DNA of 10,544 nucleotides from positions 1 through 10,544 of the IMG/VR virus record IMGVR_UViG_3300029841_000319. One strand, written 5' to 3'. Position numbers: made by a program. This document shows positions 6,001-9,000 of this stretch, piece by piece. This DNA is from a virus (lineage: Duplodnaviria > Heunggongvirae > Uroviricota > Caudoviricetes). The number at the start of each line of letters is the position of its first letter. Position 1 is the first letter of the stretch.

Positions 6001-9000
6001 CATAACTTGTTACCTCGGTCTGTTACTGTTGAGGTAATAATTATGCTTATTTGGTTTGGTGTCAATAGATATGAGTTAAAAAAATTACCCGTAAGGTAAT
6101 CTATCTGGCAATAAAAAAGCCGCCAGAAGGCGGCTTACTTACTGAAAAGTATGATTTTATTGTTTGTTTTTTTCGTTCTGGTTGATGACAAATTCAATGT
6201 AACTTTCGATCTTTGCTTTCTCGGTTTCGGGTAACAATGCGTAGCGCGAGCGGTCATAGTTGATGGTCGCAGGGTCGTGCGGGTGAATCAGTAATTCATA
6301 GCCGTGACGCCCGAATGCGGATGCAACATTCTCCAGGGTGGAAATGGAAACGCTGACCTCATTGTTTAACAGGCGACTGATTGTCACCTGGGCGACGCCG
6401 GATGCGCGGTGAAGTTTTCCCTGCGTTGAAAGGTCGCGGCTTTCGCTCATCCAGCGTTCCAGGTTGTGAGCCGCCAGCTGACCAATGTCGCTTGGGCCGA
6501 CAGGCTGAAAACCTTCCTGAGAAAGCGAGCGATCGATATCAAGCCAGTTACGGGGTTTATTGGCGGCAGCTTCAATTTTTCGTGCAACCTGGTCGCCGAT
6601 AACCTTCTTGCCAAGAGCCCAGCGGTTTACCAGATTTGCCTGAGTTCCAAGTTTTTCTGCCATCCGCGTCTGAACACCATTGAATTCACGGTCGATCAAG
6701 TCGTTGAGATTTTGCCTGCGGACGTCCTGGATACTTTTCATTTTCTGGAAAATCGCCTCATATATGAATCAGTAGATGATTCAATTTAAAGCAATATTAC
6801 CCAACAGGTAAATGCACCTCATAGGTAACTATCCTTGATTTTTGTTACCTTATGGGTGAATATTTATTATCTGAAATAAATATCAGGCAATAGCTATGAG
6901 CGATAACGGACATTTCGATTTCAAAAAGCACTGGCTTGCACTTACTCCGGATGAGCGTGAAGCCTTCGCACAGGAAGCCGGAACGACGAGTCACTATATC
7001 CAGACTCACTTAACAGGTAAGCGCAAAATGCCAGGTAAGGTATTGATGAATGGGCTTTTTAAAGCCTGTAAAACAAGACAATGGCTGCGCTCAAAAGCAG
7101 AACTGGCATACTTCTTCTACTCATGATATCCAGCTACAACCCTCTGTAGACCGCCACCCGGCGGTCTTTTCATATCTATTCGTACCTCAAAGGTAATAAA
7201 AAACCAAATCTGGTTGATCTTTTTTTTGTGTCAGCACAAAATGACCGTAATCCCAATACTAATAACAGGGCTTACCATGGAAATCATTACACGTATTGAT
7301 GCCGCAAAGCGCGGACTTAAACGCTACTACACCGGAAAACCATGTAAGCATGGACATGACAGTGAACGCTGGGTTTACAACGGACACTGTGTTGAGTGCA
7401 CCATGGAATCAAACCGTCGCATCAGGGCAGAGATTAAGCAGATCATGATTAATTCCTCCCCACAACACTCAAGCTGATAGCGGAGATTAATCATGAGCAG
7501 ACATGCAACAGATTGGGCCTGGGAGACAGATCCAGGTAGCTCATCATTAAAGCTCATACTGCTCTCGATGGCTGACAGAGCCGATGAATATAACCTCTGC
7601 TACCCCAGCATAGAACGCCTCGTTAAAGACACTTGCCTGAATAAAAAAACCGTGCAGGCCGGGCTTATATCGCTCATGAAAATGGGGCTTATTTCAGATA
7701 CCGGAGAGAGAAAGGGAGTGACAAAAAGAGTGCGGGTTTTCTCTCTTAATATAACCAAAAACGGGAACATTAAAGGCAACCTAGAAGGGTGTAATGAACC
7801 CGAAAACGGTAATGTTCCCGAAAACGGGAATATACCCAAAAACGGGATGTTGAATGATCCCAAAAACGGGATGTTGAATGATCCCAAAAACGGGATCCAG
7901 AACCAGTCATATAACCAGTCATTTAACCAAGAGAGGGAGAGCAGGACAAAAACCGGGGATTCTGTGCCTCATGACCCCGGCGCAAACAACGCCGTGATGA
8001 ATAACTTTGTTCCTCCTGGTGGGCCAGGGCAATTAGGCAAATTTGTCATGCATGAACAATGGCAGCCATCAGATGACTTTCTTCGGAAAAGCTCATTGCA
8101 GGGAATCTACCTGGACAGTCTGCCAACGGCACAGGAACTTGCAGAGTTCAGAATTTACTGGATGGCTGAGGGTAAGGCATACCATCAGGCACAGTGGGAG
8201 CAGAAGCTGGCAAGGCGCATCCAGTTCTGTAGACAGAAATCAGGTGAAGTCAGAAAGAGCCTTGACTGGCATAACACTGACTGGATAGATGAGGTGTGGG
8301 ATGAAATCAACTCCAGAACTTCTTAATGAGTACGATCGCTTTCGTGGTGGGCATGACCACTCGACGGCGGTTGCTTCTGCTGACGATGAAAGGGCAAAGA
8401 AGGAGCAGGTTGCAAGAATTTTCAACGAAATGTTTGTCCAGTTACAGGCTGCATTTCCAGGCAGCATCGCTGCTATCAGCGAGCAAGGAAAGCTAAACGA
8501 ATTTCGAAAACAATGGATGCTTGCGTTTCTGGAGAATGGGATCACAACAATGGAACAGGTTAACGCTGGTATGCGCCACGCCCGCGCCAGTGAATCTCCG
8601 TTCTGGCCGTCGCCAGGGCAATTTATCAAGTGGTGTAAAGACAGCAAGATGGTTCTTGGCGTCACCATTGACGATGTGATGGCGGAGTTTCACCGGTACA
8701 GCAAGGAAAAAAGTTTATATCCTGGTGGTCCCGAAAGATTCCCGTGGCGACATCCGGTTATGTACTGGGTCGTATGTGATACCCGCCGTGCAATGTATCA
8801 GCGCCAGCTTAGCGAGATTGAGGTTGAGAAACACGCGCGCAGGCTGCTCGATGATTGGGCGAAAAAGGTGGCTTCCGGACAGCAGATACCCGATCCGGTG
8901 ATCAGCATACAGGCAAAGCCAGAACCCATGAGTACACCTCCGGACACAGGGAGAGACGTTTACCATCCACCAGGGCGAAGTTTCGGGTGCATGCCTAACG

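Follow-up and report, generated by a model that had tools for sequence, protein, structure and literature searches.

We analysed a window of 10,544 nucleotides (the whole stretch, positions 1 to 10,544 of IMG/VR virus record IMGVR_UViG_3300029841_000319, Caudoviricetes), in which the short region between a Cro-like gene and the replication genes carries a G+C-rich hairpin, an operator-like dyad and a promoter-like element. Over 2.1 kb spanning this region (5500-7600) the window shares 97.5% identity with Escherichia phage phiV10 and 96-98% with several other E. coli phages; it is a prophage of the phiV10/epsilon15 type, genus Uetakevirus (epsilon15-like podoviruses), and not a lambdoid phage. 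A preliminary description had read the locus on the lambda plan, a framing that has to be given up for a Uetakevirus whose repressor operators are distributed over many intergenic regions. E. coli IAI39 has the cro region (6880-7300) at 100% identity, and a search of 5,426 complete E. coli genomes found the region in 539; the prophage type thus occurs in about one in ten of them, and its relatives serve as Salmonella and O157 typing/biocontrol phages. The features of the switch and its two flanks are as follows, P_B and O_B being our names for the predicted promoter and operator ahead of the replication genes.

6023-6136, minus strand: PL cassette, with a terminator (6136-6117), an operator (6099-6085), the -35 element TTGACA (6065-6060), the -10 element AATTAT (6042-6037) and a second operator (6037-6023)
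6023-6037 and 6085-6099: PL operators, flanking PL
6157-6741, minus strand: repressor (Rep), 194 amino acids (aa), with two helix-turn-helix (HTH) domains; Pfam HTH_3, match to PDB 5D50
6797-6811 and 6845-6859 (both at least 9/10) and 6814-6828 (8/10): cro-promoter operators, overlapping the cro promoter (TTGATT, 6835-6840)
6896-7126, plus strand: Cro-like HTH gene, 76 aa, PHROG 35 'transcriptional repressor' (E 5.6e-13), identical to PhiV10p41
7127-7147, plus strand: C-rich, G-poor untranslated leader before the hairpin, together with 7168-7189 a candidate rut-like stretch
7148-7167, plus strand: terminator hairpin, AGACCGCC-ACCC-GGCGGTCT and then TTTTCATATCT, found by folding, by the terminator scan and in the phiV10 annotation
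7168-7181, plus strand: U-run and tail, TTTT (the stem's last T plus TTT) and then CATATCTATTC
7182-7196: putative operator O_B, GTACCTCAAAGGTAA, agreeing with TTACC-N5-GGTAA at 9/10 positions, its centre some 60 bp ahead of the predicted start
7197-7213: A/T-rich stretch with the dyad CCAAATCTGG (7204-7213) abutting the -35; column identity 0.82, 17 nt long in 19/19 sequences
7214-7219, plus strand: predicted -35 of P_B, TTGATC in 18/19 sequences (TTGATA in the Erwinia prophage)
7237-7242, plus strand: predicted -10 of P_B, CAAAAT, after a 17-nt spacer
7243-7257: putative decayed proximal operator of P_B, TGACC in the window and TTACC abutting the -10 in most relatives
7277-7477 (ATG at 7277), plus strand: 66-aa protein, first gene of the replication unit, epsilon15 gp40 family, PHROG 1081 (E 7.7e-43)
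7493-8326, plus strand: DnaT/HTH_36 initiator (O-like)
8289-9083, plus strand: lambda-P-like gene
9089-9197, plus strand: post-P cassette, with a hairpin (9089-9100) plus T7 (to 9108), an operator (9121-9135), the -35 element TTGATT (9155-9160), the -10 element TTTAAT (9178-9183) and a second operator (9183-9197)
9121-9135 and 9183-9197: post-P operators, after the P-like gene

By the list of open reading frames (ORFs) the Cro-like gene is the sole gene between the repressor-cro operator region and the hairpin; its protein found no match in a PDB sequence search. The hairpin lies 21 nt 3' of the cro stop codon and 110 nt 5' of the ATG of the next gene, and consists of an 8 bp stem with six G-C pairs closed by a 4-nt loop. 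As RNA it folds to -15.0 kcal/mol, against -5.1 +/- 2.0 kcal/mol for 200 shuffles, none of which was as stable (z -4.98). Its tail, UUUUCAUAUCU, holds four T, with five U among the first eight bases, which is short, though accepted by the terminator scan; over the whole window that scan returned 13 sites against 10.6 +/- 3.4 in shuffles, which is no enrichment, although its top two matches are the cro hairpin and that behind the repressor gene (6136-6117, minus strand). A U-run is lacking on the other strand, so the cro hairpin faces rightward only. The GenBank record of phiV10 (DQ126339.2) already labels the same element, which differs by one loop base (ACCC vs. ATCC), as a 'putative rho-independent terminator' (33078-33100, between PhiV10p41 and p42). 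By its sequence the hairpin is an ordinary, already annotated terminator, predicted to act as such, and the GC-rich hairpin with a T-run that had been noted between the Cro-like and replication genes is confirmed, with the qualification that the U-run is short.

Conservation was followed in 19 sequences, the window and 18 relatives with Cro proteins of 57-100% identity to that of the window, from E. coli, Enterobacter, Salmonella, Citrobacter, Klebsiella, Kluyvera, Erwinia, Pseudocitrobacter, Scandinavium and Buttiauxella; as MAFFT misplaced arms of the three cassettes and of the hairpins, anchored manual and scripted comparisons were used instead. The hairpin is retained in all 14 distinct homologous sequences, at -11 to -15 kcal/mol, with a nearly invariant stem core (GCCGCC/GGCGGC). 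Compensatory changes occur in Scandinavium (G-C to A-U within the core, GCCACC/GGTGGC) and Buttiauxella (a re-registered stem, GGCCGC/GCGGCC), and the flanking pairs vary among relatives between A-U, G-C and U-A. The loops are 3-7 nt long and take 13 different sequences among the 14, a variability that fits an element of structure only, such as a terminator, and not a loop-recognised RNA such as boxB. A U-run follows the stem in the lineage of this window and E. coli and in those of Tyrion, BUCT554 (Enterobacter), Erwinia, Pseudocitrobacter, Scandinavium and Buttiauxella; it is absent from the epsilon15, Citrobacter, Klebsiella and Kluyvera lineages, the tails of which are of the UCCUUCC-, UCCUGCC- or AUCUGCA-type. 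On the minus strand, a promoter-like match (TCTACA-16-TATCAT, 9/12, 7123-7150) that overlaps the hairpin would yield an RNA antisense to cro, but is probably due to chance, since the promoter scan found 7 sites against 12.3 in shuffles.

The repressor aligns over its full length with Rep of phage SPC32H (PDB 5D50, E 4e-42), a protein that binds palindromic DNA as a tetramer (PMC9638917). The operator consensus TTACC-N5-GGTAA was taken by eye from three copies in the repressor-cro intergenic region, and expectations were obtained from Markov simulations. Sites matching at least 9 of the 10 consensus positions number 7 in the window, with 0.18 expected, and 14 in the whole phiV10 genome, with 0.63 expected; in phiV10 nearly all are intergenic (the exceptions being two sites at 87-119, inside the annotated start of the small-terminase gene) and some of them precede the terminase, portal-region, tail-fibre and lysis genes. 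A perfect 9-bp inverted repeat of A/T only (ATATTTATT-ATCTGA-AATAAATAT, 6860-6883) occupies the -10/start region of the cro promoter; Tyrion and BUCT554 conserve it in part, epsilon15 does not.

After cro, the operator-like dyad that had been placed at 7181-7197 is also borne out, with its best register at 7182-7196 and a 9/10 match. Its right half, GGTAA, is invariant in the 17 aligned sequences, and the dyad sits where PL and the post-P promoter have their distal operators. We take this dyad, O_B, to be a repressor operator, to which Rep would be expected to bind. The GenBank record of epsilon15 annotates dispersed repressor sites ('protein_bind: repressor') but none after its cro homologue; the two systems are alike in their homologous Rep and in a palindrome spread over intergenic regions, whereas the post-cro site differs from the annotated ones in being weaker (9/10) and in lacking a full partner 62 bp away. 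The phiV10 record has only the terminator, with neither the operator equivalent to 7182-7196 nor TTGATC-N17-CAAAAT annotated.

The elements that follow the hairpin resemble two complete cassettes elsewhere in the early region. PL and post-P share the layout terminator, operator, A/T-rich stretch, -35, N17, -10 and operator: at PL the A/T-rich stretch between operator and TTGACA is 19 nt and the spacer 17 nt, at post-P there are likewise 19 nt from operator to TTGATT and a 17-nt spacer, with a start codon after the proximal operator, and the phiV10 record annotates a terminator after the P-like gene too. The post-cro region has a like order and nearly like distances, namely hairpin, 14 nt, operator, 17 nt, TTGATC (the hexamer pointed out earlier, at 7214-7219), 17 nt, CAAAAT and a decayed half-site. 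A junction at which the -10 runs into TTACC is found at PL (AATTAT/TACC), at post-P (TTTAAT/TACC) and at P_B in most relatives, and in Enterobacter phage BUCT554 a complete 9/10 proximal operator stands at the P_B position. The centres of the two PL operators are 62 bp apart in the window and in 15/16 relatives as listed (63 bp in Klebsiella lineages, 61 bp in Scandinavium), those of the post-P pair in the window and in 14/16 (61 bp in Scandinavium, an adjacent 18-bp pair in Buttiauxella), and this spacing holds whatever replication module lies between the two cassettes. Such 62-bp pairs suggest a bridge across the promoter, with a single repressor tetramer on both operators.

Column identities from a 17-sequence alignment (Buttiauxella and phiV10 were examined separately) reach 1.00 for the GGTAA half-site, 0.99 for the -35 TTGATC and 0.98 for the -10 CAAAAT, as against 0.53 for the operator centre, 0.59 for the leader before the hairpin and 0.63 for the 5' untranslated region (5'UTR). 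In 19/19 sequences the elements keep a fixed spacing: GGTAA, 17 nt, TTGAT(C/A), 15-17 nt, (C/A/G)AAAAT and 27-35 nt to the start codon. A sigma-70 promoter typically shows conserved hexamers, a variable spacer sequence and an unchanging distance to its gene, and promoter activity of P_B is predicted from this pattern. TTGATC-17-CAAAAT matches the consensus at 8/12 positions, its -10 having A at position 2 and T at position 6; by an approximate sigma-70 matrix it ranks 9th among the 105,140 -35/-10 arrangements in the window, which is within the range that the matrix gives to PL (2nd), the post-P promoter (19th) and the cro promoter (4th or 21st). Phages ZX5 and TL-2011b and some E. coli genomes are near-identical to the window through TTGATC and then pass, at 7219/7220, into a different replication module, which still starts with a gp40-like gene; the promoters given in the ZX5 paper are predictions. 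Because the exchange falls exactly after TTGATC, the terminator and operator belong to, and travel with, the immunity module.

Two further features of this segment are recorded here. A leftward promoter within 7190-7245 was considered, as TTTTAT/TACCTTTGAGGTAC on the minus strand resembles the post-P promoter, and was rejected because it has no -35 (AAAAAG) and no A at -11. The -35 of P_B includes a GATC (7216-7219) that is kept in 18/19 sequences, and the phage encodes its own adenine methylase; GATC is neither over- nor under-represented in the window (39 vs. 44 expected), and the -35 copy supports no inference thereby.

We judge it probable, with some reservation, that cro forms a short unit closed by the terminator and that the replication genes start from a weak promoter of their own with a repressor site. 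On this model the repressor-cro switch would be a small module with outward-facing terminators at both ends (6136-6117 and 7148-7167), and beyond the two terminators would lie two outward-facing promoter cassettes, PL and P_B. The cro promoter would yield an essentially cro-only mRNA ending at the hairpin, here an intrinsic terminator of moderate strength, possibly assisted by Rho on the leader, whilst the 66-aa protein, the DnaT/O-like initiator and the P-like gene would be transcribed mainly from the sigma-70 promoter P_B, with a start predicted near 7249. P_B would be the mirror-image counterpart of PL, its upstream operator being placed as in PL and its -10 adjoined by what is left of a second one. 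As each early unit (PL, cro, the replication genes and the post-P genes) has its own promoter with repressor sites, no N-like antiterminator would be needed; in the late region of phiV10, several terminators are likewise followed by their own operator and promoter-like sequence.

This suggests an early region built of insulated cassettes (terminator, operator, promoter and, in part, a second operator) and not of the two long antiterminated operons of lambda. In lambda, expression of the cII/O/P region relies on antiterminated PR transcripts, and the rut sites of tR1 are C-rich and G-poor. The cro-nutR-tR1-cII/O/P arrangement is similar in having a termination zone right after cro and before the replication genes, and in a C-rich, G-poor leader like that at the tR1 rut sites, but here no N, boxA or boxB was found, the terminator stem is G+C-rich with a free loop, and a separate promoter-like element follows. 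Phage P1 offers another parallel, in that its C1 repressor exerts immunity by direct repression of many separate promoters, with no two-promoter antiterminator cascade; the dispersed operators are alike, whereas the repressor family and operator sequence are unrelated, and the operators here are palindromes that often form pairs 62 bp apart. Nothing in this set of terminators, sigma-70 promoters and dispersed operators is out of the ordinary, no new mechanism comes to light and the terminator was already in GenBank; what is new is the unannotated operator and promoter cassette before the replication genes, together with the symmetric, insulated layout of the switch. This is of use for annotation, for predicting genes that are leaky in lysogens and for engineering these phages.

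Several observations weigh against this model. The sigma-70 matrix, with base frequencies after the classic compilations, is approximate, P_B has a weak -10 (CAAAAT), and a standard, stricter promoter scan did not report P_B, as so few consensus positions match. Only the right half of O_B is invariant, and the proximal half-site of the window reads TGACC, not TTACC. The sole good operator of P_B, centred near -60 and upstream of the -35, could not by itself be expected to occlude RNA polymerase; with O_B upstream and the proximal half-site degraded, silencing of the replication genes in a lysogen would call for something more. It might be achieved by a Rep tetramer that also holds the half-site, by one that also holds the cro-promoter operators 337-385 bp away, or through dependence on an activator. 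With one 9/10 upstream operator and a decayed half-site, repressor control looks weaker at P_B than at PL or post-P; the earlier proposal that the replication genes have their own repressor-controlled promoter is nonetheless supported by the comparison with relatives, in which promoter and operator are conserved at fixed spacing, and by the cassette layout. Lastly, about half of the lineages keep the hairpin without a U-run, and the epsilon15 record gives the hairpin no terminator label; the conserved hairpin may thus have a role other than classical intrinsic termination.

The weakness of P_B by consensus, and its absence from the standard scan, would also fit a terminator that is simply leaky, with the replication genes expressed by partial read-through from the cro promoter and the terminator setting a high ratio of cro to replication transcripts; the block 7192-7242 would then be, for example, a binding region for the repressor or a host factor, or a recombination linker, and not a promoter. 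The short U-run (UUUUC) agrees with this, as does its loss in half of the lineages, and a d'Aubenton-Carafa-type terminator score is borderline (+6.6), a semi-quantitative figure that serves only to rank tails, the finder having run into U-runs in some sequences. However, the invariant positions are exactly the -35 and -10 hexamers, with 15-17 nt of variable spacer between them and the start codon at a constant distance, the junction of the -10 with TTACC matches both sister promoters, and the post-P unit clearly owns a cassette and so does not rely on read-through. We therefore regard a leaky terminator as the only source of replication transcripts as unlikely.

The loss of the U-run in half of the lineages bears equally on a second alternative, in which the hairpin is mainly a 3'-end stabiliser or processing structure within a Rho-dependent zone, in a position like that of lambda tR1, and with which P_B may coexist. 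From the cro stop codon to the operator, 63 nt hold 23 C and 9 G (C/G 2.6), and the C/G ratio of the leader is 2.3-3.4 in 12/13 lineages, with its highest values in those that lack the U-run (in Klebsiella, 29 C in 61 nt); the sole lineage without a C-rich leader, Buttiauxella, owns the strongest canonical terminator. Against this, the C-rich stretch is only about 60 nt long and is interrupted by a stable hairpin, the hairpin and UUUU of the window fit a canonical intrinsic terminator, and Rho dependence is not readable from sequence. Rho may load on the C-rich leader and contribute to termination, but a zone that is chiefly Rho-dependent appears distinctly improbable; the conserved function, we infer, is the halting of cro transcripts, by intrinsic termination, Rho or both.

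A third alternative holds that Uetakevirus has an undescribed route across this and later terminators, or a means of activating the weak P_B, the candidate being a phage factor acting at the dyad 7204-7213. This CC(A/T)6GG-like dyad resembles a second motif, CATATNTGGTT, which is found upstream of late gene clusters in phiV10 and epsilon15. If this were so, the replication unit would be delayed-early and dependent on an activator or antiterminator, which we hold to be highly unlikely.

The motif itself occurs 5 times in phiV10, with 0.08 expected. It or a related sequence was located at 3308, 20921, 24739 and 33134 in phiV10, at 2988, 24751, 33752 and 35953 in epsilon15 and at 7204-7215 and 9169-9177 in the window. 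Copies precede the portal-region, tail-fibre and lysis clusters, each about 40 bp downstream of a repressor operator and 7 nt ahead of a -10-like TAATA/TATAAT, and at P_B the -35 is directly adjoined by the related CCAAATCTGGTT; a late or middle activator could act at the motif. A candidate late regulator is gp55, the last early gene of phiV10 (38766-39104), which falls in PHROG 536 ('transcriptional regulator') and matched nothing in Pfam or the PDB; between it and the terminase genes come a terminator and, immediately ahead of the latter, a pair of neighbouring repressor operators (60-119).

The remaining genes of the window, including the leftward early operon in which an antiterminator might be sought, are the following.

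1-1251, plus strand: P4-type integrase
2503-3165, minus strand: phage-encoded adenine methylase, 220 aa
3146-3445, leftward early operon: PerC-like activator
3555-3803, leftward early operon: AlpA-family (AlpA-like) protein, excisionase PHROG
3853-4761, leftward early operon: RecT
4731-5552, leftward early operon: exonuclease
5549-5848, leftward early operon: 99-aa ORF, PHROG family of unassigned function
5851-6003, leftward early operon: 50-aa ORF, PHROG family of unassigned function
9201-9545: DUF1064 protein

Processive antitermination, by a protein or an RNA, could in principle carry cro-promoter transcripts past the hairpin and past the terminators that follow P and the last early gene: the rightward genes all lie on one strand and are separated by several annotated terminators, some small early proteins are of unassigned function (PHROGs 898, 856 and 1081), and the leftward operon encodes the AlpA-family protein and the PerC-like activator. 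The AlpA-like protein, however, accompanies a P4-type integrase and falls in an excisionase PHROG. As had been noted, the first leftward ORFs have no arginine-rich N-like motif: the 50-aa ORF has one Arg, and the 99-aa ORF nine, which are scattered and form no cluster at the N-terminus. Structure prediction of the 99-aa protein from a single sequence gives a helical hairpin (pLDDT 82), a model for which Foldseek against PDB gave nothing with E < 1, a result that is uninformative. Pfam and PHROG assigned no N or Q family among the window proteins, phiV10 gp46-gp55 and other small proteins (a part of the 55 of phiV10), and no clear N/nut or Q system was found elsewhere in the phage by way of the window proteins or gp46-gp55.

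Among RNA signals, boxA (CGCTCTTTA, at most one mismatch) is absent from the whole window and no boxB was found, the only hairpin being the one with the freely varying loop, so that the earlier remark that boxA/boxB-like elements are missing holds. A search of the whole window against Rfam with E up to 10 gave no family at 6870-7300, and the only solid match, sRNA-Xcc1, lies elsewhere. A put-like RNA had also been suggested. In HK022, put sites are two-stem-loop RNAs just downstream of PL and PR, and the likeness is to a phage without an N protein whose early transcripts meet terminators. Here, however, the cro 5'UTR is only about 25 nt, the PR-cro transcript, folded as far as the hairpin, shows no structure beyond that of shuffles (z -0.22; a fold test of the rightward leader, made without a put model), and the hairpin is the only conserved structure in the intergenic region between cro and the replication genes. 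The suggestion of an unrecognised antitermination mechanism has gained no positive support, and as an own operator/promoter cassette after each terminator removes the need for one, we consider processive antitermination very unlikely.

Within the replication unit, the 66-aa protein has a Cys/His pattern (CxH...CxxC) and may bind zinc. The DnaT/O-like initiator gene contains tandem repeats (7791-7929), comprising 3.1 copies of 18 bp (7791-7845), 2.6 copies of 24 bp at 100% identity (7835-7896) and 2.4 copies of 12 bp (7901-7929); they look like origin iterons, by analogy with those inside the initiator gene of lambda, and each 24-bp unit carries one GATC. The Rfam match to sRNA-Xcc1 (RF02221; 1975-2064, minus strand) is full length, with 62.9 bits against a gathering threshold of 53 and E 9e-10, and lies between the integrase and methylase genes, just upstream of a 226-aa ORF (1283-1963, minus strand).

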